From Patescibacteria group bacterium (GTDB taxonomy: Bacteria > Patescibacteriota > Patescibacteriia > 2-01-FULL-39-33), in assembly GCA_038065695.1 (NCBI GenBank), contig JBBTQN010000016.1, positions 11,738 to 75,737 of the forward strand: 64,000 nt of DNA, in the 5' to 3' direction. The position numbers and the translations under genes are program-made. The notes beneath the pieces are model-generated. The model was not told the DNA's origin, searched no databases, and saw nothing but the letters and a program-made list of their open reading frames with translations. Below are positions 4,121 to 60,244 of the stretch, one piece after another (within the stretch, counting starts at the first letter, position 1; each line of letters begins with the position of its first letter).

Positions 4121-4969
4121 TTACTTCTTCTGCTTTTGTTCGAGATAATTTTTAACTTTATTAATTGTAGAATAATCATATCCCTTCGCCTTAAGTAATT
4201 CCACGCAGACAGAAGGATCTTCTCCTTTATAATATTTTATATCATCAAAACACCTCGCAATATTAAAAGGATAATCAATGCTGTATCCTGACATTTTTTC
4301 TACACCAATACATATATTACAATCATCATTAATATTATTTTTTTCATTAAACATTTTATTCCTTTGATTTATATAATACCAAAACTGGTAAGCCGTCATG
4401 CAAGCGTTCGGATAATAGTCTTTTTCATCGGTGATTTGCCAGTCATCATAAGGCCAAGCAAAATAATCAAGATCTAATTTATATTTATCATATAATTCAT
4501 CACATAATTTCAAATCGTTAGTGGCCATTAGTTTATCATGATAAGTATTAAATAAGCACAGATTTTTATCAGCAGAAAGAGAGCACAATTCCGGCGCTGG
4601 TATGGCGGGTACGCCCAAATAACTGCCAAAAAACAACCGCCAAGCTACAAATCCGCCAAATAATAGAAAACAACAAAATCCGATGATTGAAAAAATACGC
4701 AAGAATAAATTTTTCTTTATTTCTTTTAATAATAATATAAAAAATAATATAATCCATAATACCAAACCAACGACCGCGCCAAACATAAACGAAATAGCTT
4801 GTCCGATATTAAAACCAAAAAAGTCGCCCCTCAATAAAAAAGCGCCCCCCGTATAAATAATCAAAAACACGATGAAAGCTACCAAAAATGAAGAGGAAAA
4901 AATTTCAAATTTATTTAATTTATTACGCTCCTCGGCAGAGCGCATAAGCTGATCACTTAGTTGGTTCAT
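4121..4969 (-). CDS. hypothetical integral membrane protein with Cys-rich (8 Cys) C-terminal domain; very AT-rich, inserted between porA and porB
   Basis: Three to four predicted TM helices (FLVAFIVFLIIYTGGAFLL, FMFGAVVGLVLWIILFFILLL, IIGFCCFLLFGGFVAW) are followed by a Cys-rich domain (CSLSADKNLC...CDEL...CMTAY...CNICIG...CFDD...CVEL). Codon usage is dominated by AAT, TAT and AAA. Confidence 0.6.
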   Translation of the reverse strand: MNQLSDQLMRSAEERNKLNKFEIFSSSFLVAFIVFLIIYTGGAFLLRGDFFGFNIGQAISFMFGAVVGLVLWIILFFILLLKEIKKNLFLRIFSIIGFCCFLLFGGFVAWRLFFGSYLGVPAIPAPELCSLSADKNLCLFNTYHDKLMATNDLKLCDELYDKYKLDLDYFAWPYDDWQITDEKDYYPNACMTAYQFWYYINQRNKMFNEKNNINDDCNICIGVEKMSGYSIDYPFNIARCFDDIKYYKGEDPSVCVELLKAKGYDYSTINKVKNYLEQKQKK

Positions 4970-4989: not shown

Positions 4990-6165
4990 TTATTTTCCGA
5001 CGAAAATTATTTTCTCTTTGGTTCTCTTGGATATCTCAATGGTCTTTTTTATCATCTCCTTGGTAATATCGCGACCGCCCAAACCCATGATAACACCGGT
5101 GATTTTCGCTTGGCTTTGGCCATACAAAGCGCGCTTTATCTCGGTCGCTAAAATCCCTTCAGTGCCGAGTGAAATCGATTTGTCCAGCACGGCGATATTT
5201 TCGGCCTTAACCAACAATTTAATAATTTCATCGTCCGGAAACGGCCGGAAAGCGGTGATTTTTAAGATACCGATTGTGTTTTTGTGTTTTTGTGTTTTTG
5301 TGTTTTTGTGATATTCATCCACCGCCTCTTTCATTGTCCCTAAAACTGAACCCATCGCCACGATGACGGTCTTGGCGTTTTTATCGCCATAATATTCCGC
5401 CAAGTTAAGCGGCCGGCCGAATATTTTTTTAAAATTATCCATTTCCTTTTTAATCTCCGCTTTTGAGGCGGCCAAATCATCGTGCAAACTTTTCCTGATT
5501 TCAAAATAATGTTCCGGCGTGACCAGCGGCCCGAAAGTCAAAGGATTTTTTACATCCAATTTTTCCGAGGACTGATAAGCCGGCAAATATTTTTTGATTT
5601 TTTCCGCGGCTTCAATTTCCACCGGCTCCACCACATGAGTGAGAATAAAGCCGTCCAAATTCACCATCACCGGAAGCTCCAATTTCTCCCCCACTTTATA
5701 AGCCAAGATATGTAAGTCACAAACTTCCTGCACGGTCTCGCCAAAAAGCATTATCCAGCCGGCGTCGCGCATAATCATCACGTCCTGCTGATCATTCCAG
5801 ATATTTATCGGCGCCGAAACTGAACGATTGGCGTCGGTCATAACCACCGGGAGCCGCATGCCCGCCAGATTATAAAGCACTTCAGCCATAAGCAGTAACC
5901 CCTGCGAAGAAGTGGCGGTATAAGTCCTCACCCCGGCCGCCGACGCGCCCAAAACGATGGAAGCCGCGGCGAATTCGCTTTCCGCCCGCACATATTCAAA
6001 ATCCGCCTTGCCGGCCTCGCTGTTGGGCTGGCCATCGGCTTTCAGCTTGGCCAGTTCTTCCACAATATGCGTCTGCGGCGTGATGGGATACGCAGAAACC
6101 ACACCTACGCCGATATTATTAATTGTCTCGGCAATCGCCCGACTGCCTTCTAATATTTTTTTCAT
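4990..6165 (-). CDS. porA: pyruvate/2-oxoacid:ferredoxin oxidoreductase alpha subunit
   Basis: Reads MKKILEGSRAIAETINNIGVGVVSAYPITPQTHIVEELAKL..., which is the POR alpha domain architecture. Confidence 0.9.
   Translation of the reverse strand: MKKILEGSRAIAETINNIGVGVVSAYPITPQTHIVEELAKLKADGQPNSEAGKADFEYVRAESEFAAASIVLGASAAGVRTYTATSSQGLLLMAEVLYNLAGMRLPVVMTDANRSVSAPINIWNDQQDVMIMRDAGWIMLFGETVQEVCDLHILAYKVGEKLELPVMVNLDGFILTHVVEPVEIEAAEKIKKYLPAYQSSEKLDVKNPLTFGPLVTPEHYFEIRKSLHDDLAASKAEIKKEMDNFKKIFGRPLNLAEYYGDKNAKTVIVAMGSVLGTMKEAVDEYHKNTKTQKHKNTIGILKITAFRPFPDDEIIKLLVKAENIAVLDKSISLGTEGILATEIKRALYGQSQAKITGVIMGLGGRDITKEMIKKTIEISKRTKEKIIFVGK
5275..5310. repeat. 8-bp microsatellite (gtgttttt)x~4.5 inside porA coding sequence (encodes KNTKTQKHKNT in frame)
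   Basis: Direct reading of tgtgtttttgtgtttttgtgtttttgtgtttttgtg. Confidence 0.85.
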
Positions 6166-6177
6166 AAACCAAAAAGA

Positions 6178-7209
6178 TTAATACTTTATATACGCCTTTA
6201 CTAAGTCTTCATCTCCTCCGGCATTAATAAATTCTTGTAAACGCGGATCGTCCGAAAGATTATATTTTTTTCTGAAATCAATAATCGCCTTCGCTTGATT
6301 GATATCTTTTTTATTTTCAAAGTCGGCTAAATCGCGGAAACAGTCTCGTCCCAATGAATTGATTAATTTCGCCGTTGGTTTCAACCTGGCGGAAAAATAA
6401 GGCCTGACCAAATCGTAATAAACCTGATTTTGATCATCGAATTTATCATGATTCAATTCATATATTTTCTCCACCATATCGGAAAACAGCCGTGATAAAA
6501 ATTCATACTCCGAGTTTCCTTCACTGATCACGATCATCCCCTCTTCAATCTCTTCGGCTGAAAGCAACCTTTTGTCGCGTTCAATCGCCAACTCGCGATA
6601 TTTAGGATGCTGGCGAATATTATTCCTAAAAAAATCAACATTCAATCTGTCGGTGATCATCTCGTCCCAGCCCTTAAAATGAAATTCCTCTTTTTCTTCC
6701 ACTGGTTTCCCATGTCTTATACTCCAACCTTGTCGTAATTGATCTCTTATTTCTATCGTGTCATCGGTGGCGACAATATAATGTTTCGTGACCGCGTAAA
6801 GATGAAGAAATTCATGAGTTAAAATGTCCAATATCGCGAGTAAGTTATTTTTTTGTTCCTTTAAAAACTCTTCACAGATAAAAATACCTTGATTATTGCA
6901 AAACGCCGGATTGACTTCGTAATCCCTATTATAATTTTTCTCACATAAATCTCGGGGTAAAATATGAATCATGGATGGAGTTATTTCAATCGGCTCAATT
7001 TCAATTTGTCTTTTAATAGTTTCTCTTAATTCAAGTGCCAGCCATTCTATGTGATTTACTAGTTCCGGTGATTTCTCCACTTCGCCCTCAACGGTCATTT
7101 CTAAAAAATCTTTGAAGTCAGCTGAAACTACCTCATTATCTTCTCCCTCAAGCGGCCTCTTGCTTGAATCGACAAAATATAAATTTTTTTCAAGTTTGCC
7201 TTCGGGCAT
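6178..7209 (-). CDS. HExxH-motif protein, paralog A of tandem triplet (putative zincin-like metallohydrolase, unknown family)
   Basis: Carries HEFLH and a C-terminal IIDFRKKYNLSDD, and shares GEVEKSPEL...IHILP motifs with the neighbouring paralogs. Confidence 0.7.
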   Translation of the reverse strand: MPEGKLEKNLYFVDSSKRPLEGEDNEVVSADFKDFLEMTVEGEVEKSPELVNHIEWLALELRETIKRQIEIEPIEITPSMIHILPRDLCEKNYNRDYEVNPAFCNNQGIFICEEFLKEQKNNLLAILDILTHEFLHLYAVTKHYIVATDDTIEIRDQLRQGWSIRHGKPVEEKEEFHFKGWDEMITDRLNVDFFRNNIRQHPKYRELAIERDKRLLSAEEIEEGMIVISEGNSEYEFLSRLFSDMVEKIYELNHDKFDDQNQVYYDLVRPYFSARLKPTAKLINSLGRDCFRDLADFENKKDINQAKAIIDFRKKYNLSDDPRLQEFINAGGDEDLVKAYIKY

Positions 7210-7231: not shown

Positions 7232-8245
7232 TTATTTCTTAATCATTTTTAACGCTTGCTCAATATTTTTATCCTCCGGCAAGCCGTATTTTTTTCTAAA
7301 ATTGATGATTTGATGAAGAGTATCATCCCCTTCAACTAAGTCGATATTAGCCAAATCAGTGAAGGCGCCATCACCTAATTTCCTTATCAATTTTCCCGCC
7401 CCAGGTAAATCGCCATTAAAATAATGATAAAAAAATTTGTTTCTCACTTCTAAATCATCTTCAAAATCATCTTGATGGCGTTTATAAATCGATTCATATA
7501 AATCTTTGAATAACGACTCTAAAAAATAATAAACACCAGAGAATCGGTTAGGAAGAACTGTTTTTCCTTCTTCTTTTTGTTTAGTGGTTAATTTTTTTTC
7601 CAATTGCTCTACCTGTTCAGCAAAACGCGGATCTTTAGATATCTTTCGAATATATATCAATCTGGTTAAATATTGCGTGATCGCTTCATTTAGCCCAAAG
7701 AATAAACGACGCGACTTTTTCACATCTTGGTAGGTGGCTCCATATCCGACAGCATAACCTTTTTGATATGGTCTAACATGGACTCGGCCTTCTTGATCAA
7801 TAAATTGAGAAAACTTATGAACCGAGGATTGATGTAAAAATTCATGTACTAATAAAAGTATTTTTTCTAATTCACTAACTTTATTATCCTTCAACTTATC
7901 AGCATCTAACCAAATACCAAAATCGGTTGCTGTAAAGGTTGGAATTCTTTCGGGATTATGAGAGCTAAAGATAGATAGAAGAGTGTCGTGAGGTAATAGG
8001 TGTACTAAATTTCTGTCGTTAAAAACATTAACTTCAACACCGAATTCTCTCGCCTCATTATGGACAATCTTTCTGGCTGAATCAATGAGCTCGGAAAGTT
8101 CTTTAGACTTTTCCAACTCTTTTTCCTTAACAAATTCAGAAACAATAGTATAATTACTATCTTCTTTCATTGGATTATTAAAGTCAGCCCCTTCATCTGA
8201 CTTTTCATTTTTAATAAAAATGTTTTTTCTTAATCCTTCAGACAT
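7232..8245 (-). CDS. HExxH-motif protein, paralog B of tandem triplet
   Basis: Carries LVHEFLHQSSV, GLNEAITQYLT and INFRKKYGLPED. The ORF track starts at 8305, but the Met at 8245 avoids overlap with paralog C. Confidence 0.65.
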   Translation of the reverse strand: MSEGLRKNIFIKNEKSDEGADFNNPMKEDSNYTIVSEFVKEKELEKSKELSELIDSARKIVHNEAREFGVEVNVFNDRNLVHLLPHDTLLSIFSSHNPERIPTFTATDFGIWLDADKLKDNKVSELEKILLLVHEFLHQSSVHKFSQFIDQEGRVHVRPYQKGYAVGYGATYQDVKKSRRLFFGLNEAITQYLTRLIYIRKISKDPRFAEQVEQLEKKLTTKQKEEGKTVLPNRFSGVYYFLESLFKDLYESIYKRHQDDFEDDLEVRNKFFYHYFNGDLPGAGKLIRKLGDGAFTDLANIDLVEGDDTLHQIINFRKKYGLPEDKNIEQALKMIKK

Positions 8246-8264
8246 ATTATTTTTTAAACAATTT

Positions 8265-9209
8265 TTAAATCTTTTCCTTAAGCAATCCTTTTTCAGAATA
8301 TTCAATTCTACCAGTTAATATTTCATCTTCCGGCAAGCCGTACTTTTCTCGGAAAGCCGCGATTTGTTTTAATGTCTCAAGAGAGTCATCTGGTTTTAAT
8401 CGGGAAATATCAAGATAACTGTGGGGATTTAGGATCGCAAAAAGAGGCAACAGCGAACCGCCTGAAAAATAAGATTTTACCATTTCCTTAATCACTTCAT
8501 CTTTGTCTTGATATTTATCTTGATTAACTTCTCTTAATTTTTCGGCTAAATCATCAAGTAATCTTTCCAAATAGTCATAACCGCGCGGTCCCGGTATCTC
8601 TTTTTCTTTCGCTGCTCCTTCTTCCTGGTTTTGGATATGATCCCGATAAAATTTTTTTGTCAAATATTGAGTAATTGTTTCATTTAAACCGCCAAAACAC
8701 ATTTCGGTTTTTGATAAATCGGCATAACCGCCTCTTTTTACCGACAAACCAGCATAAAAATCAAATTTTTTCTCCTCATCTTCCAAATAGGCAAGTTTTG
8801 TTATTGATGCTTGATGGAATAATTCATGAATCACGGCAATGAGTGAATCAATATCGACCGTCTTAAAAAATTTTTCATTCAATAAAATGCCGCGATTTGT
8901 GTGAGTGCCATAAATATTTTCATGAAGAGGCCGTTTTACATACGCCCGAAGTTTTTCTTCCGGCAAAAAATGGACGATATCAGCCGTAAGATTAAACGGC
9001 TCCACCCCGTATTCGGCGGCTATCTCGCGAATCTTTTCTGTCAACCAATCAATCTTTTCCGACCATTCCGGAGATTTCTCTATCTCTCCTTCAAATGGAC
9101 GGCTCTGACACTCACTTAATTCTTTTTTTAAATCGTCTTCTTTTTCTTTGGAAACCTGCTTTTGTTCCTTGCCGCGGAAAAAAATATTTTCTTTTAAGAT
9201 TTGTCTCAT
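8265..9209 (-). CDS. HExxH-motif protein, paralog C of tandem triplet; start overlaps porG stop (ATGA)
   Basis: Carries VIHELFHQASITK, GLNETITQYLT and AAFREKYGLPEDE. Its ATG at 9209-9207 overlaps the porG TGA at 9208-9206. Confidence 0.7.
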   Translation of the reverse strand: MRQILKENIFFRGKEQKQVSKEKEDDLKKELSECQSRPFEGEIEKSPEWSEKIDWLTEKIREIAAEYGVEPFNLTADIVHFLPEEKLRAYVKRPLHENIYGTHTNRGILLNEKFFKTVDIDSLIAVIHELFHQASITKLAYLEDEEKKFDFYAGLSVKRGGYADLSKTEMCFGGLNETITQYLTKKFYRDHIQNQEEGAAKEKEIPGPRGYDYLERLLDDLAEKLREVNQDKYQDKDEVIKEMVKSYFSGGSLLPLFAILNPHSYLDISRLKPDDSLETLKQIAAFREKYGLPEDEILTGRIEYSEKGLLKEKI

Positions 9210-9757
9210 AAAACTAAATTATTACTCACTACTTCGTACCCTCTCTTCGCCGCTTCTATATTCTTTTTTCCCACTTCGCCCTCAAATTTTTTACTAATCG
9301 CCTTTTCTACCGCTTTGAAACTGACTAAACCCGACAAGCCGGCAAAAGCGCCGACTAAAACCGTGTTAAAAATCGGCTTGCCGATGGTTTCTGTCGCAAT
9401 GTCAGTGGCAGCAATCGTTTTAATGGCCACGCCGGGCGGCGCTTTGAATTCCACCGCCGATCTTTTGGTGTTTATTAAAACGATCGTCCCTTTTTTCGCG
9501 CCCTTGAAAATTTCTACGATGTTAATTAAAGATTCATCTTGAATAATAATATAATCCGGCTCATAAATTTGCGAGCGCAACCGGATAAATTTGTCGTCAA
9601 TCCTCACATACGCCTCCACCGGCGCGCCGCGCCGCTCCACGCCGAAATTAGGAAAGGCCTGCGAAAATTTGCCGTCATAAAAAATCGCTTCCGCCAGAAG
9701 CTCGGCCATCGTAACTGACCCTTGGCCGCCACGGCCATGAATACGGATTTCTATCAT
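9206..9757 (-). CDS. porG: pyruvate/2-oxoacid:ferredoxin oxidoreductase gamma subunit
   Basis: Reads MIEIRIHGRGGQGSVTMAELLAEAIFYDGKF...FPNFGVERRGAPV. Confidence 0.9.
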   Translation of the reverse strand: MIEIRIHGRGGQGSVTMAELLAEAIFYDGKFSQAFPNFGVERRGAPVEAYVRIDDKFIRLRSQIYEPDYIIIQDESLINIVEIFKGAKKGTIVLINTKRSAVEFKAPPGVAIKTIAATDIATETIGKPIFNTVLVGAFAGLSGLVSFKAVEKAISKKFEGEVGKKNIEAAKRGYEVVSNNLVL

Positions 9758-24112: not shown

Positions 24113-24226
24113 CTTCCCCCTCCTTGTCTTAAGGAGGGGGTTGGGGGAGGTCTTAAAATAAATTTTATTTAAGACCCCTCCGTCCCGCTTGGCGGGACAC
24201 CTCCCCTTGAAACAAGGGGAGGATTT
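24113..24226. repeat. GGGGAGG-family composite palindromic element (three hairpins)
   Basis: The sequence is ccccctccttgtcttaaggaggggg-ttgggggagg-tcttaaaataaattttatttaagacc-cctccgtcccgcttggcgggac-cctccccttgaaacaaggggagg. Confidence 0.8.
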
Positions 24227-27727: not shown

Positions 27728-27755
27728 GTAGAGACGCATTGCCATGCGTCTCTAC
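27728..27755. repeat. hairpin gtagagacgcattgccatgcgtctctac overlapping ruvX stop codon
   Basis: A perfect 10-bp stem. Member of the gtagagacgc hairpin family. Confidence 0.85.
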
Positions 27756-28229: not shown

Positions 28230-28895
28230 TTATTTGAAAATTTGCTTATCTATTTTCTTCGCTTCGCCAACAAAAAATTTTTGCCACTCGTTTGGGTTGA
28301 TTTCTTTAATCATTCTGGGATAATCCTTGACTTCTCTTACTCTTAACAATTGGCTGCCCAATTGAATCGGGTCGATGTGCCAATCAAATTTTATCTTCGC
28401 TTTTTTAATTAATCCGTCAAGCCGCCATTTTTTATCTTTAAGAATAAAATACAAATCAATAAAATCGCGCGAACGGGGATTCTGGTAGATGGTAAAAATT
28501 TTGTTGACGGCAATATCAATCAAGCTGTCAATAAAAAGCCAACTGATTTTGTTTTTCCTTTCAATCCGCGGAAAGGGGTAATAAGTGAATTCGGTCTTGA
28601 TGATTTCGCCGTTTTTAAAATGGAGAAAAAAAAGATTCCGATTGAAACTTTGCTTGAAATCAACTTTTTTAAAGCCGCATTTCTTACTGATTGATTTAAA
28701 AAAGATAAAAATCGCTTGGGAATCGACTTCTTTTTCGGAAAAAAAATCCAAATCTTCCGAAAGCCGATGATGGAGATAAAATCCCGCCAAAGCGATGCCG
28801 CCGGTCAAATAAAAATCACGGCAGATTCCGGAATTAGTGGAAACTGCCTCTAAAACTTTTTTTTGATTTTGAGTCAAGATTTTTTCCGCGGCCAT
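28230..28895 (-). CDS. nucleotidyltransferase AbiEii/AbiGii-like toxin family protein
   Basis: Reads FYLTGGIALAGFYLHHRLSEDLDFFSEKE, matching the GGTAL..HR.S.DLDFF signature of AbiEii (DUF1814) proteins. Confidence 0.6.
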   Translation of the reverse strand: MAAEKILTQNQKKVLEAVSTNSGICRDFYLTGGIALAGFYLHHRLSEDLDFFSEKEVDSQAIFIFFKSISKKCGFKKVDFKQSFNRNLFFLHFKNGEIIKTEFTYYPFPRIERKNKISWLFIDSLIDIAVNKIFTIYQNPRSRDFIDLYFILKDKKWRLDGLIKKAKIKFDWHIDPIQLGSQLLRVREVKDYPRMIKEINPNEWQKFFVGEAKKIDKQIFK

Positions 28896-29220: not shown

Positions 29221-29285
29221 TTCTTTTTTTTAGATGGGATTGCTTCGGTCGTCCCGCCAAGGCGGGACTCCCTCGCAATGACATT
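29221..29285. repeat. GC-rich hairpin repeat (gggattgcttcggtcgtcccgccaaggcgggactccctcgcaatgac)
   Basis: Has the stem cccgcc-aa-ggcggg and shares its termini with 20380-20420. Confidence 0.65.
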
Positions 29286-42678: not shown

Positions 42679-43869
42679 TTATTTAATGATTTTAGTGACG
42701 ACACCCGCGCCCACCGTGTGTCCACCCTCTCTAATCGCGAATTTCATTTTTTCTTCCATCGCCACCGGTTTGCCCAGTTTCACTTTCAAATTATTGATGG
42801 TATCGCCCGGCATCACCATTTCCACGCCTTCGGCGAGTTCAATCTCACCGGTCACATCGGTGGTGCGGACATAAAACTGCGGCTTGTAGCCCTTGAAAAA
42901 CGGTTTGTGCCGGCCGCCTTCCTCTTTGGACAGGACATAAACTTCCGCTTCAAAATCGGTATGCGGGGTGATTGAGCCCGGCTTGGCGAGTACTTGGCCG
43001 CGCTCCACTTCTTCTTTTCTGATGCCGCGGAGCAAAATGCCGGCATTATCGCCCGCTCGGCCTTCATCTAATGACTTGTTAAACATTTCAATGCCGGTGA
43101 CCACGGTCTTTTTGGTTTCGCCCAAACCGACGATTTCCACTTCTTCATTGAGCTTGACCAGGCCTCTTTCAATCCGGCCGGTCACGACCGTGCCGCGGCC
43201 TTCAATGGAAAAAACATCTTCAATCGGCATTAAAAACGGCTGGTCAGTCGCTCTCTGCGGCTCGGGAATATAAGTATCCAAAGCTTCCATCAGTTTCATC
43301 ACCGGCTCGGCGTCCGGACCGGTCGGATCCGCCAGCGCTTTCAAAGCGCTGCCTCGGATAATCGGCGTAGCATCGCCGGGGAATTCATATTTTTTGAGTA
43401 AGTCGCGGATTTCTTCTTCCACTAAATCAATCAAAGACGGATCGTCCACTTGGTCAACTTTATTGATGAAGACCACGATATAAGGCACGCCGACTTGTCT
43501 CGCGAGCAAGATGTGCTCTCTGGTCTGGGGCATCGGGCCGTCAGTCGCGGCCACGACCAAAATCGCGCCGTCCATCTGCGCCGCGCCGGTAATCATGTTT
43601 TTAATGTAGTCAGCATGACCCGGGCAGTCCACATGCGCGTAGTGCCTTTTTTCGGTTTCATACTCCACATGAGCGGTCGCGATCGTTATACCGCGCGCTT
43701 TTTCTTCCGGCGCCGCGTCAATCTGGTCAACTGACTTATCCTGCGCTCTAAACCCTTTAGCTCTTAAAATCTTTAGGATCGCCGCCGTCAAAGTCGTTTT
43801 GCCATGGTCCACATGGCCGATGGTGCCCACATTGATATGGGGCTTGCTTCGGTCAAATTGTTCTGCCAT
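42679..43869 (-). CDS. tuf: elongation factor Tu
   Basis: Reads [23 protein letters not shown]...DCPGHADY...NKVD. Confidence 0.95.
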
Positions 43870-44060: not shown

Positions 44061-44459
44061 TTATTCCACCGTCTCAAAATAAAGCGGGTCTTCCTCGTTT
44101 TTTTCCTTATTTTGGCTAAAATCTTCGGAAGATATTGGGTTTTCCGGCTCGGCCGGCGAGCCAAAATCCGACCCGGCTCCCTCTGTCCAATCTGGCTTAT
44201 TACGACCATTTTCCGTTAAATCAGCCGGAAAATCAGCTTGGCCAAAGGGCAAATCTTGGTCTTTATCCTCCCACCAATTACGCCAATCATCGTCGTTACG
44301 GCCAATTTCAGCCAAAAAATCATCAGGGGAAAAGTCATCGTCAGAAACCATTTTTTCATAATCGGAAAAAGGCATAATCACAAAACTCGGCTCGCCATTT
44401 TCATCCAAAATAATGGCTTTATCGCCGGTTTTTTTAATGAGAGAGAAAAGTTTTTTCAT
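44061..44459 (-). CDS. hypothetical acidic protein; N-terminus resembles Phd/YefM antitoxin fold
   Basis: Reads KAIILDENGEPSFVIMPFSDYEKMV, followed by a D/E/W-rich tail. Confidence 0.35.
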   Translation of the reverse strand: MKKLFSLIKKTGDKAIILDENGEPSFVIMPFSDYEKMVSDDDFSPDDFLAEIGRNDDDWRNWWEDKDQDLPFGQADFPADLTENGRNKPDWTEGAGSDFGSPAEPENPISSEDFSQNKEKNEEDPLYFETVE

Positions 44460-44514
44460 AGGATTTTAGGTTACCCACGAATCTACAAATCTTGCTACGA
44501 ATTTACAAATCGAT

Positions 44515-44612
44515 TTCCCCTCCTTTCTAAGGAGGGGTTAGGGGAGGTTATGAAAGTCACGAAAATTGGCGTGAGTTTCAAAACCCCTCCTAACCTCCCC
44601 TTTGAAAGGGGA
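44515..44612. repeat. GGGGAGG-family composite palindromic element (hairpin-arm-hairpin-arm-hairpin)
   Basis: The sequence is cccctcctttctaaggagggg-ttaggggagg-ttatgaaagtcacgaaaattggcgtgagtttcaaaa-cccctcctaa-cctcccctttgaaaggggagg. Confidence 0.85.
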
Positions 44613-44720
44613 GGAATTTAACGAATATTCGTAAATTCGTAAAAATTCGTAATTCGTAGTTATTTTTATCTAAATTTAGCTAATTTTTATAAATAAAATA
44701 TTAATAATTTCTCTACGGGG

Positions 44721-44757
44721 TTGACTTTTTTATTAGATATGGTATAAATGGTATAAT
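44721..44757 (+). promoter_or_regulatory. sigma70-like promoter (TTGACT-16/17-TATAAA/ATAAAT; duplicated -10 ggtataaatggtataattgg)
   Basis: ttgact at 44721-44726. The downstream gene has a strong SD, aagaggag, 8 nt before its ATG at 44843. Confidence 0.55.
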
Positions 44758-44842
44758 TGGGTGTTAAGTCAGCGCTTGTTTTGATTGGCAAAATGAGCGA
44801 GCTGACTATGAAAATAGGACATTAACAAAGAGGAGAAAAAAG

Positions 44843-45232
44843 ATGATGTCACCTTCTGAACAAAAACGATTTGTTGCTGTTGCTATTCTGTGCTTACTTT
44901 TTACTGCCGTCGTTGGCGGGACAGTAGGATACCATCATGGTCTTGCGGATGGTAAAAACGCTCTACAAGAAACCGCGCCGGTGGAAACCGCTCAAAAAGA
45001 AATGACGGAAAAGATTCCTCAATTCTTCCCAATGAACCCACCAAATATGGAAGTGGTGAGTGAATGGAGCAATAAATTATCCCCCGTTCCTTTTTCTCAT
45101 GCTAATTATGGCGACAACGCCAAATCCAGATATGTGAAAATTGATGGGAGGATGGCAGTGCAGTCAGTAGAATACCAAGCGATGTCTATTGCCTTCATCC
45201 CGCCGGATTGCGGCGAAAGCGAAGGACAGTGA
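44843..45232 (+). CDS. hypothetical membrane-anchored protein (foreign composition, strong SD)
   Basis: An N-terminal TM segment (FVAVAILCLLFTAVVGG). GC is higher than in the host genes. Confidence 0.5.
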   Translation: MMSPSEQKRFVAVAILCLLFTAVVGGTVGYHHGLADGKNALQETAPVETAQKEMTEKIPQFFPMNPPNMEVVSEWSNKLSPVPFSHANYGDNAKSRYVKIDGRMAVQSVEYQAMSIAFIPPDCGESEGQ

Positions 45233-45268
45233 ACGGAAAACGGAAAAACAGGAAAGGAGAAAAAACAA

Positions 45269-45451
45269 ATGGACAAATCACTCACAGAGATGGAGTGCGT
45301 GGAAGAAATCGGTTTTGACGATCTCCAACAGAGATTGGAAAAACTGGTTAATCTTTTGAAAGAGCGTGAAACGGGATGTTTCACTTGGCACGAGATGCTC
45401 AACGAGCAGTTGAAAAAGCTCCACGGTCTTCTGTGTCCGCTCTTTTCTTAA
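45269..45451 (+). CDS. hypothetical small protein (strong SD ggaaaggag)
   Basis: ORF only. Confidence 0.4.
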   Translation: MDKSLTEMECVEEIGFDDLQQRLEKLVNLLKERETGCFTWHEMLNEQLKKLHGLLCPLFS

Positions 45452-45485
45452 GTAGCACCTTCCCTTGTAAAACACAATCAACATC

Positions 45486-45532
45486 CGACCCGCCTTGAGA
45501 CAAAGCTGTCTCTCGGCCGGGTCTTTTTTTTG
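45486..45532 (+). terminator. rho-independent terminator (gacccgcc...ggccgggtc + T8)
   Basis: A hairpin followed by tttttttt at 45524-45531. Confidence 0.7.
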
Positions 45533-45567
45533 TTTTGAAAAGAACATTCTTGTCTTCGATGTTCCGT

Positions 45568-45630
45568 TGTAGAGACGGATTGCATCCGTCTCCGACGCCC
45601 AATTGAGACGCATGGCAATGCGTCTCTACA
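45568..45630. repeat. nested hairpins of the gtagagacgc family (tgtagagacggattgcatccgtctcc...gagacgcatggcaatgcgtctctaca)
   Basis: Perfect stems. The inner loop 'catggcaatg' is the reverse complement of the loop at 27728-27755. Confidence 0.8.
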
Positions 45631-45739
45631 TTTTCATCTTATAATATTTATAAAATAGTGGCAAGATATTGAAAACAACCCCGCAAATGCAGGGTTGCCT
45701 TTGGTAGTAAAAATTATTTCAAATTCATGATTTATTCGC

Positions 45740-46018
45740 TTAAAATAAATCATCATGCGATCCGGTAGCCACTAATTCCAAAACCAAAATGTCATGCCGG
45801 TAGCGATAGATTAAAAGCCAATCAGGCGCAATATGACATTCCCAGCAATCCTTAAAATTGCCGACTAATTTATGATTGCAATTTTTATCCGGAACATCTT
45901 TTCTTTCAATCAATAAGCTAATAATTGCTTTCAAATTATTAAATAAATCAGGATCTGATTTTTTTAATTTACGATATTGCCGCTTGAATTTGTTTGTATA
46001 CCAGATTGAATAAGCCAT
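45740..46018 (-). CDS. yafQ: type II toxin YafQ/RelE family mRNA interferase
   Basis: Reads KFKRQYRKL...HKLVGNFKDCWECHIAPDWLLIYRYRHDILVLELVATGSHDDLF. Confidence 0.8.
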   Translation of the reverse strand: MAYSIWYTNKFKRQYRKLKKSDPDLFNNLKAIISLLIERKDVPDKNCNHKLVGNFKDCWECHIAPDWLLIYRYRHDILVLELVATGSHDDLF

Positions 46019-46021
46019 AAA

Positions 46022-46306
46022 CTAGGATAAGAGCTGTTTTTCTAATTCCTTTAAACTCCTTGCCGGCTTACGACGACCGGATTTGTAAGCTGCCTCCATT
46101 GCAGCAATTTCGGCTAAAATCTTTTTTTCTTGTTCTGGCGTAAAACCATTTTCGGTCGTTAGTAAAAAGGGCACGCCCTGATCGCGAACCACTTTGGCCA
46201 AATAAATCTTGATCCCTGTGCTTAAATCAAGGCCCAAAGAATTAAAAATTTTCGCGGCTTGGCGCTTGATTTTTTTATCCACTCTGGCTTGGACTAATTC
46301 AGTCAT
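46022..46306 (-). CDS. dinJ: type II antitoxin DinJ/RelB family
   Basis: Reads ARVDKKIKRQAAKIFNSLGLDLSTGIKIYLAKVVRDQGVPFLL, 3 nt upstream of yafQ. Confidence 0.8.
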   Translation of the reverse strand: MTELVQARVDKKIKRQAAKIFNSLGLDLSTGIKIYLAKVVRDQGVPFLLTTENGFTPEQEKKILAEIAAMEAAYKSGRRKPARSLKELEKQLLS

Positions 46307-46423
46307 AAAATTTAATATTATTAATATATTCATATTGTATTACATTGTATAGACATTGTCAATAGAGTTATCCACAACCAAAAAATCCCCCGCCAGAACG
46401 GAAGATTTTTTTATTATAATAAC

Positions 46424-48556
46424 CTATTTCCTTTCCGTGGCTTTGCCGGCTCGTCCTTCCACAATCTTCATTTCCACATTCTTCGGCACTTCGCTGTATT
46501 TCAAAAATTCCATCGTGGAAGAAGCGCGGCCTTGGGTGAGCGAGCGCAGCACCGTGGCGTAGCCGAACATTTCCGCGAGCGGCACTTCGGCGGAAATCAC
46601 TTTGACTTTGGCCGAGCCGATTCCCCTTTCATCCATATTGCCGATGATGGCGCGGCGCGAATTCAAATCGCCGATGACATCGCCCATGAATTGTTCGGGC
46701 GTGACGGCTTCAATTTTCATAATCGGTTCCAAAATCACCGGACCGGCTTGCTTGACCGCGGCTTGAAACGCCAGGGAGCCGGCAATTTTAAACGCCGCTT
46801 CGGAAGAGTCCACTTCGTGATACGAGCCGTCATAAACCGTCACCCGAATATCAATCAAAGGATAGCCGGCGATGACACCTCTATCCATCGCCTCACGCGC
46901 GCCTTTTTCAATCGGCTTAATGTATTCTTTGGGAATCACGCCGCCTTTGATTTCGTCAACAAATTCAAAAATCTTGTTCGGCTCGGACGGCTCAACTTTA
47001 AGCCAACAATGGCCGTATTGTCCCCGGCCGCCGGACTGACGGATATATTTGCCTTCGGCTGCCGCCATTTTTTTGATCGTCTCTTTGTAAGCGACTTGCG
47101 GCGCGCCGACATTGGCCTCCACTTTGAACTCGCGCTTCATGCGCTCAACGATGATATCCAAATGAAGCTCGCCCATGCCGGAAATGATCGTCTGCATTGT
47201 TTCTTCATCGGTCCGGACGCGGAAGGTCGGGTCTTCTTCGGAAAGCTTGGACAAAGCGATACCCATTTTTTCTTGGTCGGCTTTGGTCTTGGGCTCAATC
47301 GCGATATCAATGACCGGTTCGGGGAAAGTGATCCTTTCCAAAAATATCGGGTGGCTCGGGTCGGACAAAGTGTCGCCGGTAGTCGTGCCTTTGAGCCCCA
47401 CGATGGCGGCGATTTCTCCGGCATACACTTCCTCAATGTCTTCGCGAGAGTTGGCGTGCATGCGCAGGATCCGGCCGACTCTTTCTTTATTGCCGTTGGT
47501 ATTGTTTAAAATATAAGAGCTGGATTTAAGGACGCCGCTGTAAACGCGGTAAAAAATAAGCTTGCCGACGAACGGGTCGGTCGCCACTTTGAAAGCCAAG
47601 CCGACCAAAGGCGCGTCGTCTTTCACTGCCACTTTTATTTCTTTACTCTCGTCGTCAACATCGTGGCCGATAGGCGCGGCGATATCCAAAGGAGACGGCA
47701 AAAATTCGTCCACCGCGTCCAGTAAGAATTGGACGCCTTTATTTTTTAAAGCCGAGCCGCAAAGAATCGGTACAATTTTATTTTTTATGGTCGCCTGACG
47801 CAAAACCCGCTTCAAATCGGCGATGGGAATTTCTTCGCCCGCCAAATATTTTTCGGTCAATTCATTATCATGTCCGGAAATCGCTTCCACTAATTTCGCC
47901 CGATATTCTTTCGCTCTTTCTACCTCATTGGCGGGAATTTCGGTGTCTTCCCATTTCGTCCCCAACTCATCTTGGTAAATGCGCGCTTTCATCTCAAAAA
48001 GGTCAATGATGCCCTTAAAAGTTTCGGCCGCGCCGATCGGAATCTGAATCGGGTGGGCGTTTGGGGTAAGCCGGTCGTGAATGGTCGCGAGGTCATGATA
48101 AAAATCCGCGCCCATCCGGTCCATCTTATTGATGAAGCCGATTTTCGGCACGTGATACTTTTCCGATTGCCGCCAGACAGTCTCGGACTGCGGCTCCACG
48201 CCGGCCACGCCGTCAAAAACAATCACCCCGCCGTCCAAGACGCGGAGCGACCGCTCCACTTCGGCGGTGAAGTCAACATGGCCCGGCGTGTCAATGATAT
48301 TGATTTGAATGTCGCCCCCGCCCAGCCACTCGGCGTTCGGCCAAAAGCAAGTCGTCGCGGCCGAGGTTATGGTGATGCCGCGCTCTTGCTCTTGTTCCAT
48401 CCAATCCATCGTCGCTTCGCCTTCATGGACCTCACCCATTTTGTGTTTTTTGCCGGTGTAAAACAAAACCCGCTCGGTGACGGTCGTCTTTCCAGCGTCG
48501 ATGTGAGCGATGATGCCAATATTTCTGATTTTTTCCAGGGGTTCTAAACGAGGCAT
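46424..48556 (-). CDS. fusA: elongation factor G
   Basis: Reads [26 protein letters not shown]...DTPGHVDF. Confidence 0.95.
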
Positions 48557-52701: not shown

Positions 52702-53589
52702 TTATTTAATCAACTGCCACTTTACTCCATTACTCTCAAATACTATATCTCCATTCCTATCCGTCCTAAAAATCTTCACCCCCATCTCCTCCAAATAATA
52801 AATGGCGCGGAAAGAGGGCAGGCCGTATGAATTGTCAGCGCCGACTTCAATGACGGCGTATTGGGGCTGGACAACGGCCAGAAATTCTTGGCTGTTGCCG
52901 TTGGAAGAGCCGTGATGACCGACTTTCAAAAGGTCGGCTTTGACGAGCTCGGGAGAGCTGGAAGCCAGCTTTTCTTCCTGCTCAAAATCGCCCATAAAAA
53001 GCGCGGTTGAGGAAACATAAGACAAGCGGAAAACAATTGACGAATTATTAAGATTATCAAAACGCCGACCCTCAATATTCTCTAAAGGCCAGAGTATTTC
53101 TATCGTCGTGGAGGCGTCCAGCGCGATTTGTTTTTGGCCGTCCACAATTTCCACGGGGATATTTTTTTCTTTAATTAAGTTTAAAAATTCAATATAATCG
53201 CCGGCAGTGTGGCTCGCGCCGGTCATCATAACTTTTTCCACCCGATATCTTTTTAGCACTTCCACCAGGCCGGTGACATGATCGGCATGCGGATGGGTCA
53301 AGATGACGAGCTCCAAATCATTGTCGGTGAGAGGCAGATATTTGCCCAATTTTTCCAAAACCGAATTATCCGGCCCGCCGTCAACTAAAATGTCGTCGCC
53401 TTTGGCCGTCCGGATGAGCTCGCTGTCGCCTTGGCCCACGTCAAAGAAGTAAATTTTTAATTCTGGTTGCGGGTTGGAAGCGGTATCAGATAATACCTGC
53501 GGCTGGCGAGAATTATAAAAAATTAAAAAAACAAGAAAACAAGAAAATAAAATGACAATAAATATAATTTTTGTTTTTTTGTTAAACAT
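52702..53589 (-). CDS. membrane-anchored MBL-fold hydrolase (ComEC C-terminal lactamase_B-like domain as separate ORF)
   Basis: An N-terminal TM segment is followed by LILTHPHADHVTGL and KVGHHGS. Confidence 0.65.
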   Translation of the reverse strand: MFNKKTKIIFIVILFSCFLVFLIFYNSRQPQVLSDTASNPQPELKIYFFDVGQGDSELIRTAKGDDILVDGGPDNSVLEKLGKYLPLTDNDLELVILTHPHADHVTGLVEVLKRYRVEKVMMTGASHTAGDYIEFLNLIKEKNIPVEIVDGQKQIALDASTTIEILWPLENIEGRRFDNLNNSSIVFRLSYVSSTALFMGDFEQEEKLASSSPELVKADLLKVGHHGSSNGNSQEFLAVVQPQYAVIEVGADNSYGLPSFRAIYYLEEMGVKIFRTDRNGDIVFESNGVKWQLIK

Positions 53590-53607: not shown

Positions 53608-55152
53608 TTAATTTTTTAATTTCTTATTCGTATTATACACCCAAACCGCAATCACCCCGTAGAGCGCGACCACCAAAAAAATATTTAGCCACTCTATTTG
53701 GAGGCTTGAGAGTGGCACTTTTGACAAGCGATCAACCACCCAAAGAAAATAACCAGCGGCAAAATAGCTGACATAACCCAAGAGTTTTCCGAGCGGCAAA
53801 AAAACCGCGCCAACGACCGCGTTGATAAAGCCCCAAACCATTAAAAACGGAATGGTGGGCAAAATTAAAATATTGGCCAGAAAAGAAGAAAGAGAAAGCC
53901 GATGAAAATAAAAAATTATCAAAGGTAAGGTCATTATTTGGGCGGCCAAGGTCATAATAAATATTTCTTTGACTTGCCAAAATTCGGGCAGGCGGCGGAA
54001 ATATTTTTCCAAAATAGGAACGAGATAAATCAAGCCGATGACCGCCATAAAAGAAAGCTGAAAACCGACGTCAAAAATCAAAACTTTCGGGTTGAAGGCG
54101 AGCATCACGGCGGCGGCAAAAACAATCAGATTAAGCGAGTTATTCAGCCGGCCGACTTTCTGGGCATACAAGACGAGGATGCCCATAATCGCCGAGCGGA
54201 CGGCCGAAGCCGGCGCGCCGATCATGACAATATAAAAAACAATGATGGCGGCGATGGCCCAAAACGCCTTTGGCCGAGATATCCCGAGGCCAATCGCGAC
54301 GCTCATTAAAACCATGGAAATAATGGCAATATGCTGGCCGGAAATGGCGATGATATGGGTGACGCCGGTTTGGGAAAATTTATCCATCCACGCCGGCGAC
54401 AAACCGCCGCGGTTGTTAAAAAGCATCGCCTGAAGAAGGGCGTTTTGCGGCTCTCGAATGGAGAGGGAGAGGCCATTAGACAAAAATTTTTTCGCTTTTA
54501 ATACATTAATTATTAGACCCCTCCCCAACCCTCCCCTTGAGACAAGGGGAGGGGGATTTGTTTTAGAAATCTTCGCGAACGAACACACCGAATAAATATC
54601 ATATCGGGCTAAATATTTTTCATAATCAAAATCATCGAACTTTTCCGGTTTTTTTAGTTGGCAAGAAACACCGACTTCATCACCGTATTGATATTTAGGA
54701 TAAAGCGGTAAGGTCAATAAAACTTTGCCGCTAACCGGTATTTTACCCGCCAATTTTGAATTAATAGTTATTTTCTGCTTATCAATCCGTTCGTCAATAT
54801 CGGCGACAACACCGGAAAAGTTGGTTTCTCGGCCGTTATAATAGTAAATTTTCGTTTCGTCGGAAAAATCAGGCAGAGAAATTTGATAACGCCAAACGCC
54901 GAGGAAGAAACAAAAAATAAAAAATATTAAGACGCCCCACCGGGGCGTCTCTACAACGGGCAAGCCCGCCTTCGCTAAAGCTACGGCGGGCAAGGAAAAA
55001 ATCAGCCCGAGAGCTGATATTAAAATTAAACAAAAGATAATAAACGAGTTAAAAGAAAAAAAACTGGAAACACCGACGCCGACAATAAAAAATAAAAGAC
55101 AAAATAAAAATATTTTTGATTTGGAATGGGTAATTCTCTGCCAATAATTCAT
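53608..55152 (-). CDS. comEC: DNA internalization competence protein ComEC/Rec2 (DUF4131 + competence domain) carrying two in-frame palindromic-repeat insertions
   Basis: Reads GVWRYQISLPDFSDE...YDIYSVCSF (DUF4131) and HIIAISGQHIAIISMVLM (competence domain). Repeat DNA at 54511-54565 and 54927-54995 is translated in frame. Confidence 0.75.
   Translation of the reverse strand: MNYWQRITHSKSKIFLFCLLFFIVGVGVSSFFSFNSFIIFCLILISALGLIFSLPAVALAKAGLPVVETPRWGVLIFFIFCFFLGVWRYQISLPDFSDETKIYYYNGRETNFSGVVADIDERIDKQKITINSKLAGKIPVSGKVLLTLPLYPKYQYGDEVGVSCQLKKPEKFDDFDYEKYLARYDIYSVCSFAKISKTNPPPLVSRGGLGRGLIINVLKAKKFLSNGLSLSIREPQNALLQAMLFNNRGGLSPAWMDKFSQTGVTHIIAISGQHIAIISMVLMSVAIGLGISRPKAFWAIAAIIVFYIVMIGAPASAVRSAIMGILVLYAQKVGRLNNSLNLIVFAAAVMLAFNPKVLIFDVGFQLSFMAVIGLIYLVPILEKYFRRLPEFWQVKEIFIMTLAAQIMTLPLIIFYFHRLSLSSFLANILILPTIPFLMVWGFINAVVGAVFLPLGKLLGYVSYFAAGYFLWVVDRLSKVPLSSLQIEWLNIFLVVALYGVIAVWVYNTNKKLKN
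54511..54565. repeat. GGGGAGG-family palindromic element inside comEC ORF (encodes [15 protein letters not shown])
   Basis: The sequence is cccctccccaaccctccccttgagacaaggggagggggatttg. Confidence 0.85.
54927..54995. repeat. gtagagacgc-family hairpins inside comEC ORF (encode LPAVALAKAGLPVVETPRWGV)
   Basis: The sequence is ttaagacgccccaccggggcgtctctac followed by cccgccttcgctaaagctacggcggg. Confidence 0.8.
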
Positions 55153-55195
55153 TATTTTTTGAATTACGAAATGACATGATTTATTTATATCTAAA

Positions 55196-55300
55196 TTCAG
55201 AAATTGCCTTATTTTCGCCGCGAGGACTGTTTGAGCCCCGCCTTGGCGGGGCGAGTTCCGCAGCCAGAAAATAAGGCAATTCCTGAATTTAGTAATTCGC
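55196..55300. mobile_element. MITE-like element: 25-bp perfect terminal inverted repeats flanking a GC-rich hairpin core
   Basis: Reads ctaaattcagaaattgccttattttc...gccccgccttggcggggc...gaaaataaggcaattcctgaatttag. Confidence 0.7.
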
Positions 55301-55309: not shown

Positions 55310-56396
55310 TTATTCCTTAATTTTTCCTCTTAAATAGCTCTCCACAAAATCATCAATCTCCCCGTTCAAGACGCGGTCCACATCGGCAGTTTCGTGTTCG
55401 GTCCGGTGATCTTTGACTAATTTATACGGATTGAGGACATAAGAACGCGCTTGATTGCCCCATTCGGCTTTCTGATAGTCCCCTTTCATCACCTTTACTC
55501 TTTCGCCTTCCTCGGTTTCATAATATTTTAAAAGTTTTGCCTTCAAAATCCTGATGGCGCTCTTCTTGTTTTGGAGCTGGGAGCGTTCGTTTTGGCATTT
55601 GGCGGCGAGGCCGGTGGGAAGGTGAGTGATTCGTACCGCCGAGTCAGTCGTGTTGACGCTCTGTCCGCCGTGACCCGAAGCGCGCATCACTTCAATTTTT
55701 AAATCCTCGTCTTTGAGCTCAATCTCCTTAATCCCCTCCGATTCCGGCAAAACCTCCACCAAAGCGAATGAGGTGTGGCGCATTTTTTCCGCGTCAAACG
55801 GCGAAATGCGCACCAAACGATGGACGCCATTCTCGGATTTTAGCCAGCCGTAAGCCCAGCGGCCGCTGATTTCTATCGTCGCGCTCTTTAGTCCCGCTTC
55901 CGCGCCCGGCGTTTCATCCACCACCTTCGCCTCAAAATTGTGCCGCTCGCAAAACCTCAAATACAGCCGCCGGAGCATTTGCGCCCAGTCCTGCGCGTCC
56001 ACCCCGCCGGTGCCGGCGTGGATGGAGACGACCACGCTTCCCTCGTCATAACGCCCGGAAAATAAAACCAAGAATTCCAATTCTTTGAATTCTTGGATTA
56101 GTTTTGACAGTTTTTTTCCAATTTCTTCCGACAGGCCGCTGTCATCCATCTGGGCCAGCTCGCCGAGTTCATCAACTTCATTTTTTAAATTTTCCCAACT
56201 CGCCAAATCTGATTTTAAATTTTCATACCTTTGGCTGATGACCCTGGCTTTTTCCGGCTCCGCCCAAAAATCGGAGTGAGAAATTTCCTTCTCCAATTCG
56301 GCGATTTCCTTTTTTACTTTATCCAAGTCAAAGCAACCTCCAAATTCCAGAGATTTGACGCTTCAAATCTTTAATTTGACTCGATGTCTCATTCAT
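55310..56396 (-). CDS. prfB: peptide chain release factor 2 with programmed +1 ribosomal frameshift (CTT TGA C at 56333-56327, SD-like GGAGG 3 nt upstream)
   Basis: ORF0 MNETSSQIKDLKRQISGIWRLL stops at TGA 56330-56328. The +1 frame continues DLDKVKKEIAEL...RISPFDAE (SPF motif)...GGQSVNTTDSAVR...GQH-like. Confidence 0.85.
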
Positions 56397-60214: not shown

Positions 60215-60244
60215 GCGTCGAGACGCCCGACGGGGCGTCTCGAC
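60215..60244. repeat. hairpin gcgtcgagacgcccgacggggcgtctcgac downstream of ftsZ
   Basis: A perfect stem, in the gtagagacgc family. Confidence 0.8.

Follow-up and report, generated by a model that had tools for sequence, protein, structure and literature searches.

Probable In-Frame Insertions of Short Dispersed Palindromes in the comEC Gene of a Groundwater Patescibacteria Bacterium

The comEC Gene and Its Three Palindromic Elements

The window analyzed here is a 64-kb stretch of DNA (64,000 nt of contig JBBTQN010000016.1) from a small groundwater bacterium of the Patescibacteria, and the gene in question is comEC, which encodes a ComEC/Rec2 protein and contains three palindromic elements within its reading frame. 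Pfam identified DUF4131, the oligonucleotide/oligosaccharide-binding (OB) fold, at residues 43-195 (E = 2.7e-17) and the Competence channel domain at residues 243-506 (E = 1.5e-59). The third part of the ComEC/Rec2 architecture, the metallo-beta-lactamase domain, is encoded by its own open reading frame (ORF), and this split was identical in all orthologous loci examined (including L001, L002, L121, and L122). In the clade of orthologs P0010 and P0012, a CARDB-domain gene was observed between the channel gene and the metallo-beta-lactamase gene. The protein keeps every column that is invariant in 25 orthologs; an identical protein is recorded in NCBI as ComEC/Rec2 of a Patescibacteria metagenome-assembled genome (MAG), and the closest nonidentical relatives show 50-54% identity. 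The GC content of comEC is 42.5% overall, with three islands at 68-72%.

The comEC frame runs through three GC-rich hairpins of three dispersed families, which we named A, B, and D, and meets neither a stop nor a frameshift (table 1). This read-through had been reported in a first-pass annotation made from the sequence alone; the coordinates and translations of the elements given there were correct, and the ORF is intact with both Pfam domains. The family A copy, on the sense strand TCCCCCTCCCCTT-GTCTC-AAGGGGAGGG-TT-GGGGAGGGG, consists of a hairpin and a second copy of the G-rich arm and sits in the linker from the OB fold to the channel domain (site 2; GC 0.69). The family B copy, GTAG-AGACGCCCC-GGT-GGGGCGTCT with an unpaired tag, lies in the loop between transmembrane helices 2 and 3 (TM2-TM3; site 1) beside the family D copy, CCTTGCCCGCC-GTAGCTTTAGCGAA-GGCGGGCTTGCCC, and this hairpin pair has a folding energy of -38.2 kcal/mol (z = -4.2). 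The site-1 elements had been described as a pair of gtagagacgc hairpins: the one at 54930-54954 is indeed of the GTAGAGACGC type, but the one at 54958-54995 belongs to the separate CCCGCC...GGCGGG family. The ComEC peptides across the two insertion sites are PPPLVSRGGLGR and VVETPRWGVL. Because the site-2 element is free of stops in five of the six frames and the site-1 pair in four of six, stop-free read-through is unremarkable in itself.

An AlphaFold2 model of ComEC built on 25 orthologs (mean predicted local distance difference test score, pLDDT, 86.5) placed both segments in coil, at residues 62-70 between helices 36-61 and 71-92 for site 1, and at residues 198-207 between strand 194-197 and helix 208-231 for site 2. 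The two stretches of lowest pLDDT were residues 51-70 and 201-210, with values below 50 at 204-207, in agreement with the earlier expectation that the inserted peptides fall in loops. The model fits loop insertions at a distance from the functional core. When the model was compared with the PDB by Foldseek, only weak OB-fold matches (E > 0.01) resulted, and the loops could not be located on any solved ComEC structure.

Repeat Families in the 64-kb Window

The families were defined by a scan for GC-rich hairpins together with structure-aware patterns. Searched at full length with up to three mismatches, the comEC elements matched only themselves; family membership became apparent only once core motifs and structure-aware patterns were used. 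The window holds four loci of family A (CCTCCCCTT-loop-AAGGGGAGG and then a second GGAGGGG block), eight of family B (GT[A/C]G-AGACG...CGTCT), head-to-head doublets among them, and three of family C (GTCCCGC...GCGGGAC), while family D has a second, related copy at 2172-2209. By chance, 0-0.3 matches to the family A, B, and C patterns were expected (100 first-order Markov simulations, both strands). Rfam at the gathering threshold returned only five tRNAs and no family at any element. Such hairpins occur at about 1 per 3 kb, and only 4 of the 21 family hairpins are placed in coding sequence in a window that is 87% coding (P = 3e-12; clustering of the hairpins makes the true significance lower, yet it stays strong). 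Three of these four are in comEC.

The family A copy at 1805-1843 lies 52 kb from that of comEC, yet 34 nt of the arms are identical, and the two copies differ only in the loop (ACG vs. GTCTC). In this copy (1798-1850, minus strand), the AAGGGGAGGGGG arm is ~8-11 nt ahead of the uvrA ATG; thus, a Shine-Dalgarno-like GGAGG would be within the hairpin. In the copy at 24175-24222, the family A hairpin and its extra G-rich arm are separated by a nested family C hairpin, GTCCCGC-CAA-GCGGGAC (24182-24198). Two related hairpins, at 24116-24140 and 44517-44537, literally read CCTCCTT/AAGGAGG.

Family B has three features of GTAG-tagged repetitive extragenic palindromic (REP) elements, a superfamily of dispersed GC-rich stem-loops of 20-40 bp with GTAG, or degenerate GYAG or GTMG, at one end. 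Its units are 23-26 nt with 8-12-bp stems, GTAG or GTCG adjoins AGACG...CGTCT at all eight loci, and the copies are dispersed as singlets and inverted doublets (3112-3166 and 45569-45629), mainly in intergenic positions downstream of ORFs; the comEC copy is the only one of the eight deep in a gene. At 27728-27755, the GTAG provides the TAG stop of ruvX, and the element also holds the ATG of the longest recO ORF; since the RecO_N domain begins only at residue 13, the true recO start may be further downstream. A terminal GTAG or CGTC tag is lacking in families A and D: family A begins after AWT and ends ...GGGGAGGGG-TYT, and family D has GTAG only in its loop. These two families are REP-like but outside the tagged superfamilies.

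A 102-nt inverted repeat (55191-55292) between prfB and comEC has a family C hairpin at its center, flanked by 26-nt arms of 96% complementarity. It has a single copy in the window, the size of a miniature inverted-repeat transposable element, or MITE, and an RNA folding energy of -62 kcal/mol (z = -10.8).

The hypothetical ORF 2167-2877 had been listed as a third case of read repeat DNA, with some 60 C-terminal residues ascribed to it. Most of this claim did not hold. Only the last ~14 residues (PARNASHSEAGGQS) come from the hairpin at 2172-2209; more than 100 homologs conserve the C-terminal ~60 residues to ...RFAAVRK, with invariant columns through R221. The protein family, and not repeat DNA, accounts for the GC-richness of this tail.

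Empty, Filled, and Nested Sites among ComEC Orthologs

We compared ComEC with 104 full-length orthologs. The site-1 region is 41 residues long here against a median of 28, the site-2 region is 47 against a median of 40, and both segments are gaps in most of the orthologs. Insertions of at least 6 residues were observed at three sites only, namely the TM2-TM3 loop (~16 sequences), the OB-fold hairpin (8), and the OB-channel linker (5); none occurred in the channel domain of any of the 104 orthologs. As judged from pairwise identity, the site-1 carriers represent at least six separate lineages.

At the DNA level, nine orthologs were compared, and all site-1 and site-2 insertions examined were GC-rich palindromes, mostly of the family A type. 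Those in P0008, P0010, P0013, P0061, P0068, and P0119 are GC-rich hairpins in both orientations and several frames, and the peptides read from ortholog insertions include PPLVSRGGLGRG, SPLPLRKGGLGRV, LPLAKGEVRRE, and NPPLQTRGGRN. For example, the insertion of P0010, CCCCCTCCCTTT-ACG-AAAGGGAGGG-TT-GGGGAGGG, is translated SPLPLRKGGLGRV, and the TM2-TM3 loop of this ortholog also has hairpins similar to the comEC family D copy; P0008 has a family A-type copy at site 2, translated LPLTKGEVGRGL; and the loop of P0013 (L002:1483-3099) contains two family A copies in opposite orientation. As the same DNA yields unrelated peptides, the inherited unit is the DNA element and not the peptide. These comparisons support the first-pass proposal of lineage-specific in-frame insertions resembling Rickettsia palindromic elements (RPE), in that most orthologs lack the segments and the DNA matches intergenic copies in the window.

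A clade of orthologs at 65-89% identity provided a series of empty and filled sites. P0109 has an empty site, TGGCC/TCATCAAAAA; P0068 has gained 39 nt, GTCGAACCACCCCCAACCCCTCCTT-GGA-AAGGAGGGGAA; in P0099, the copy spans 42 nt and its stem is mismatched; P0061 (L122:1001-2557) has the P0068/P0099 element with a nested 33-nt palindrome; and in P0089 the insertion is another hairpin, of 21 nt, a few bases away. All insertion lengths in this clade are divisible by three, as selection demands. Target-site duplications were not evident at the filled and empty sites or at the comEC elements.

Nesting or stacking of elements was often observed, as in the 33-nt palindrome of P0061, the family C hairpin within family A at 24175-24222, and the two family A copies of P0013. 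This pattern suggests that existing copies may attract further insertions.

Families A and B beyond This Genome

The exact family A pattern CCTCCCCTT-N3-5-AAGGGGAGGGTTGGGGAGGG (29 specified bases) was found at 117 or more loci in species-representative genomes, and the comEC variant of family B, GTAGAGACGCCCC-N3-4-GGGGCGTCT (22 specified bases), on at least 120 metagenome contigs of 33-73% GC; the chance expectation was approximately zero. The family A matches listed were mostly from Nostocales and other cyanobacteria, as a module within larger repeats, and also from Alphaproteobacteria, Chthonomonadaceae, Cellvibrionaceae, and several Patescibacteria. A scan of viral contigs gave no family A matches. 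Among the matches listed, 18 of 120 family A copies lay deep in long open frames, and the eight checked were all in frame in real genes, most flanked by Pfam domain matches. The hosts, in organisms including Patescibacteria and cyanobacteria, were Fpg and RF2 (both Nomurabacteria), a DnaB intein, a nonribosomal peptide synthetase adenylation domain, PBP1C, MnmA, hydantoinase B, and a PMT-type glycosyltransferase. Family B was observed in frame in UvrB, RecG, an RsmI-like methylase, a radical-SAM enzyme, PanC, and a GH65 hydrolase, among others. Our literature search for the family A sequence found no report.

REP-associated tyrosine transposases (RAYTs) are HUH/Y1 enzymes, kin of the IS200/IS605 transposases, which act on single-stranded DNA hairpins and leave no target duplication. 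A tblastn search with Escherichia coli RayT matched 7 of the 120 REP-bearing contigs; the six RAYT-like ORFs scanned matched NCBIfam NF047646 with E-values of 1e-12 to 1e-19, below the curated cut-off, and five or more RAYT-like genes were bracketed by family B REPs. The REP within the L145 RAYT gene is identical to the comEC REP at 29 of 29 nt, including the loop and the TTAAT tail. Named relatives of this REP-linked RAYT belong to Chloroflexota, Nitrospirota, Acidobacteria, Binatia, and a cyanobacterium.

The REP-encoded peptide (VETPRRGVST and variants) was present in 109 of the 120 best RAYT homologs (P0236-P0355), ~10-20 residues past the HUH motif and in tandem copies in some. The residue after ET covaries with the residue before VS (P-G 80, F-N 24, S-D 12, and T-V 4), and these pairs match complementary stem codons. 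The covariation indicates that a large RAYT clade maintains an in-frame REP hairpin inside the transposase gene by compensatory change. No mention of this in-frame REP was found in the REPIN/RAYT literature searched.

Origin of the comEC Segments and Alternative Explanations

We propose, with a probability of about 0.8, that the comEC segments are tolerated in-frame insertions of short dispersed REP-type palindromes, similar in behavior to RPE. Sequence comparison shows that the segments belong to mostly intergenic repeat families and are absent from most orthologs, that the same loops were struck independently in other lineages, and that related genomes have an empty, a filled, or a nested-filled site. 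GC-rich palindromes of 25-39 nt would have landed within comEC and survived because their length kept the frame, the frame held no stop, and the receiving loops, the short TM2-TM3 loop and the linker between OB fold and channel domain, were structurally permissive. The GTAG-tagged family B may be, or may once have been, moved as a single-stranded DNA hairpin by a RAYT, with which the lack of clear target duplications agrees. This mobilization is proposed for family B only; families A and D have no GTAG/CGTC tag. Selection would then purge nearly all coding insertions, and the encoded peptides would be passengers and not selected.

Several observations weigh against this explanation. The nearest other ComEC is only ~54% identical, and this lineage has no DNA-level empty site of its own, so insertion is deduced from protein comparison and from what other clades show. 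In net length, the gains (+13 and +7 residues) are below the element sizes (23 and 13 codons); thus, part of the original loop sequence must have been replaced. The PDB sequence search matched ComEC entries 30bt and 9vc6, and a distant solved ComEC aligns across the site-2 linker with a gap of one residue only. The low pLDDT is partly due to alignment gaps at the insert columns. The element shared by P0061, P0068, and P0099 diverged by 11-22%, compared with 13-21% for the whole genes and 25-41% for third codon positions, a weak hint that constraint or gene conversion, and not pure neutrality, acted on this hairpin. Finally, neither Pfam on 54 ORFs nor tblastn revealed a RAYT or Y1 transposase in the window, and the named relatives of the REP-linked RAYT include no Patescibacteria; mobilization by a RAYT in this genome is therefore our conjecture.

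It is distinctly unlikely that the intragenic hairpins are selected cis-acting structures, such as an attenuator or terminator near the beginning of comEC, an mRNA-stability or ribosome-pausing element, or a DNA structure. Such a role would suit the two GGAGG motifs of element A, whose C-rich arm is able to pair with either G-rich block, as well as its G-rich strand GGGGAGGGTTGGGGAGGGG, which fits the G-quadruplex motif; but this motif is lost at 44584-44614, in P0008, and in P0013, the stem is mismatched in P0099, and we rejected the G-quadruplex and triplex ideas for family A as patterns not conserved among copies. The comEC REP hairpin, followed on the sense strand by AATATTTTTT, scores as terminator-like, yet terminator-like sites in the comEC region were not above the shuffled expectation (4 vs. 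3.6), and the terminator reading was set aside for lack of statistical support. The conservation of the P0061/P0068/P0099 element relative to third codon positions also speaks for a selected structure, as do the compensatory changes in the RAYT clade, from which functional intragenic REP hairpins do appear to exist. In comEC, however, most orthologs have nothing at these sites, and the carrier lineages differ in family, orientation, and frame. A very unlikely alternative origin is local, by template switching or slippage during replication, or by convergence of simple sequence, instead of from mobile copies. The absence of evident target-site duplications, the commonness of nested and compound hairpins, and P0089, where part of one arm may be pre-existing sequence, would agree with it; against it stand the 34 nt of arms shared with a locus 52 kb off, the recurrence of exact 22-29-base patterns at genome loci and on metagenome contigs far beyond chance, and the physical linkage of family B to RAYT genes.

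Selection on the peptides themselves, as flexible Pro/Gly-rich linkers with incidental DNA palindromy, might explain why the same two or three loops are lengthened across many lineages by inserts rich in Pro, Gly, and Arg. We regard it as highly improbable, since the same DNA element occurs in other frames and orientations with unrelated peptides, identical DNA is intergenic, and most orthologs work without an insertion. An artefact of assembly or sequencing, or decay of comEC into a pseudogene, is extremely unlikely. Chimeric reads can yield palindromes, and the metallo-beta-lactamase part of ComEC has an ORF of its own; but an independent ENA assembly (Hainich groundwater) is identical across 5,545 nt around comEC, the identical protein was found on seven contigs read, the 514-codon frame is intact with all invariant family residues kept, and the split gene is normal in all orthologous loci examined.

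A broader reading goes beyond tolerated insertion and, taken jointly, strikes us as possible but rather unlikely. In its parts, REP hairpins in coding sequence may be functional cis-elements or preferred landing pads of a transposase; Patescibacteria, maybe without a RAYT of their own, may gain or propagate these cross-phylum elements by some other route, for instance horizontal acquisition or mobilization in trans; and the untagged family A, a Shine-Dalgarno/anti-Shine-Dalgarno-like hairpin with a G-rich arm, may be an undescribed superfamily that routinely decorates essential proteins across phyla.

Comparison with Known Repeat Systems

REPs have been sorted into GTAG- and CGTC-tagged superfamilies across eight phyla, with RAYTs described as putative REP transposases (Di Nocera, De Gregorio & Rocco 2013, PMC3733652). 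That paper also reported intragenic REPs from several species, many of them within genes for replication and repair, encoding short peptides argued to occupy flexible linkers or loops. Family B resembles the GTAG REPs associated with RAYTs (Nunvar 2010; Bertels & Rainey 2011; PMC3733652) as a 25-nt GC-rich stem-loop with a terminal GTAG, occurring singly or in head-to-head doublets, for the most part downstream of ORFs and only occasionally within genes, and the same REP flanks RAYT-like genes on environmental contigs. It differs in that Patescibacteria are not among the phyla described (PMC3733652), in that the window yielded no RAYT and the named relatives of the REP-linked RAYT included none from Patescibacteria, and in that three families are stacked in comEC and one loop has been struck repeatedly across orthologs. 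The first-pass remark that such insertions are not expected in a small streamlined genome was too strong, given intragenic REPs in several phyla (PMC3733652) and the hairpin density observed here.

In-frame palindromic insertions in functional genes are known from the RPE of Rickettsia (Ogata et al. 2000, as cited in PMC3733652 and PMC3184786). Like these, the comEC insertions are in frame in a functional ORF of a reduced genome, with peptides in surface or loop regions; unlike RPE-1, a longer insert, they are 25-39 nt, as compared by description. RPE-4 and RPE-6 are CGTC-type REPs (PMC3733652), whereas family B is of the GTAG type and family A has neither tag. MITEs fold into hairpins and are at times fused in frame to ORFs (PMC3184786). 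The comEC elements share with Correia/NEMIS, ERIC, and Nezha their nature as nonautonomous hairpin repeats with some in-frame ORF fusions, but a MITE measures 70-300 bp and has 15-30-bp terminal inverted repeats plus a target-site duplication, whereas the comEC elements are below 40 nt with no duplications. Only the 102-nt inverted repeat 55191-55292 is MITE-like in appearance.

The small dispersed repeats (SDRs) of Nostoc are reportedly ~21-27 nt long, nested in larger MITE-like carriers, and said to be restricted to Nostocaceae. Family A, compared by description, is likewise nested in MITE-like carriers in many Nostocales genomes; unlike SDRs, it is also present in Alphaproteobacteria, Chthonomonadaceae, and Patescibacteria. 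The Nostocaceae SDRs of Elhai et al. (2008) are cited in PMC5861425 and PMC3116915, and a literature search for SDR sequences found none.

Neighboring Features

The prfB gene (RF2) has a canonical programmed +1 frameshift site at 56320-56395 on the minus strand, where the short frame-0 ORF (MNETSSQIKDLKRQISGIWRLL) ends GGAGG-TTG-CTT-TGA-C; therefore, the TTG listed for the 338-aa ORF is not the real start. Between fusA (46424-48556) and tuf (42679-43869), toxin-antitoxin genes and unannotated ORFs occupy 44061-46333, and REP clusters flank them at 44517-44614 and 45569-45629. Four ORFs of 282-357 aa, none with a Pfam match, lie between the pyruvate:ferredoxin oxidoreductase subunit genes. At 1900-2080, between uvrA and ORF 2167-2877, a tandem array of ccagtaa/ctggtaa/ttggtaa was observed near 1905-1945, and a further GC-rich hairpin, ATCCCGGC-TTTC-GCCGGGAT, is intergenic at 2056-2075.

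Table 1. Coordinates of the comEC Elements, Other Repeats, and Further Features (positions in the window; L entries, other contigs)
Feature	Coordinates	Strand	Size or residues	Context
comEC (ComEC/Rec2), host of insertions	53608-55152	minus	514 aa	intact ORF
Metallo-beta-lactamase ORF of ComEC	52702-53589			separate gene, just downstream of channel gene
Family A element in comEC	54518-54556	minus	39 nt = 13 codons, aa 199-212 (NPPPLVSRGGLGRG)	site 2
Family B element in comEC, GTAG-tagged REP	54930-54954	minus	25 nt, aa 67-75 (VETPRWGVL)	site 1
Family D hairpin in comEC, CCCGCC...GGCGGG	54958-54995	minus	38 nt, aa 53-65 (SLPAVALAKAGLP)	site 1
Family A copy	1805-1843	plus		intergenic, directly upstream of uvrA start (ATG 1797, minus strand)
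Family A copy	24175-24222	minus		intergenic, with nested family C hairpin
Family A copy	44584-44614	minus		intergenic
Family A-related Shine-Dalgarno/anti-Shine-Dalgarno-like hairpins (CCCCTCCTT...AAGGAGGGG)	44517-44537, 24116-24140			
Family B REP cluster, GTAG tags outward	3028-3052, 3112-3136, 3141-3166			intergenic, downstream of porB-like gene
CCGTAGC hairpin	3056-3078			within REP cluster 3028-3166
Family B REP, both GTAG/CTAC ends	27728-27755			between ruvX and recO
Family B head-to-head REP doublet, REPIN-like	45569-45629			intergenic
Family B variant, GTCG tag	60217-60244		12-bp stem	intergenic, downstream of ftsZ; T-run after it on minus strand
Family D-like hairpin	2172-2209	minus		gives last ~14 codons and stop region of ORF 2167-2877
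Family C hairpin GTCCCGC-CAAG-GCGGGAC	29251-29268			intergenic
Family C-related copy	55235-55252			inside 102-nt inverted repeat upstream of comEC
YafQ-type toxin gene	45740-46018			toxin-antitoxin
RelB gene	46022-46333			toxin-antitoxin
Phd-like gene	44061-44459			toxin-antitoxin
AbiEii-type gene	28230-28895			
Pyruvate:ferredoxin oxidoreductase subunit genes	3176-4072, 4990-6165, 9206-9757			
ORFs without Pfam match	4121-4969, 6178-7209, 7232-8305, 8265-9209			among pyruvate:ferredoxin oxidoreductase genes
RAYT-like genes with in-frame family B REP	L145:4212-4772, L232:1554-2111, L214:370-990, L169:135-956, L187:1-516			
Family A host ORFs	L021:5695-6648, L024:6031-7002, L029:421-3621, L074:2-2434, L090:3-1580, L106:4393-5622, L113:45-2321, L119:2281-5079			

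Significance

Intragenic REP-type elements are of a known kind, and our literature searches found no earlier description of palindromic elements or of RAYTs in Patescibacteria. What is added here is the recurrent use of ComEC loops, the series of empty, filled, and nested sites, and the reach across phyla, which is useful and not revolutionary. Near-identical elements of 25-40 nt are shared by cyanobacteria, Patescibacteria, and one MAG each of Alphaproteobacteria and Chthonomonadaceae; Chloroflexota are among the members of the REP-linked RAYT clade; and the presence/absence series make the spread of these elements testable. The ComEC DNA-uptake channel is regarded as central to the scavenging way of life of Patescibacteria, and its insertion-tolerant sites, namely the TM2-TM3 loop, the OB-fold hairpin, and the OB-channel linker, are now mapped as possible tag sites. 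Taken together, the results suggest that streamlined Patescibacteria genomes have been colonized by REP-type elements able to lengthen essential proteins; thus, lineage-specific Pro/Gly/Arg-rich loops in proteins of the candidate phyla radiation may often be repeat-derived, which would affect alignment, annotation, and structure prediction.

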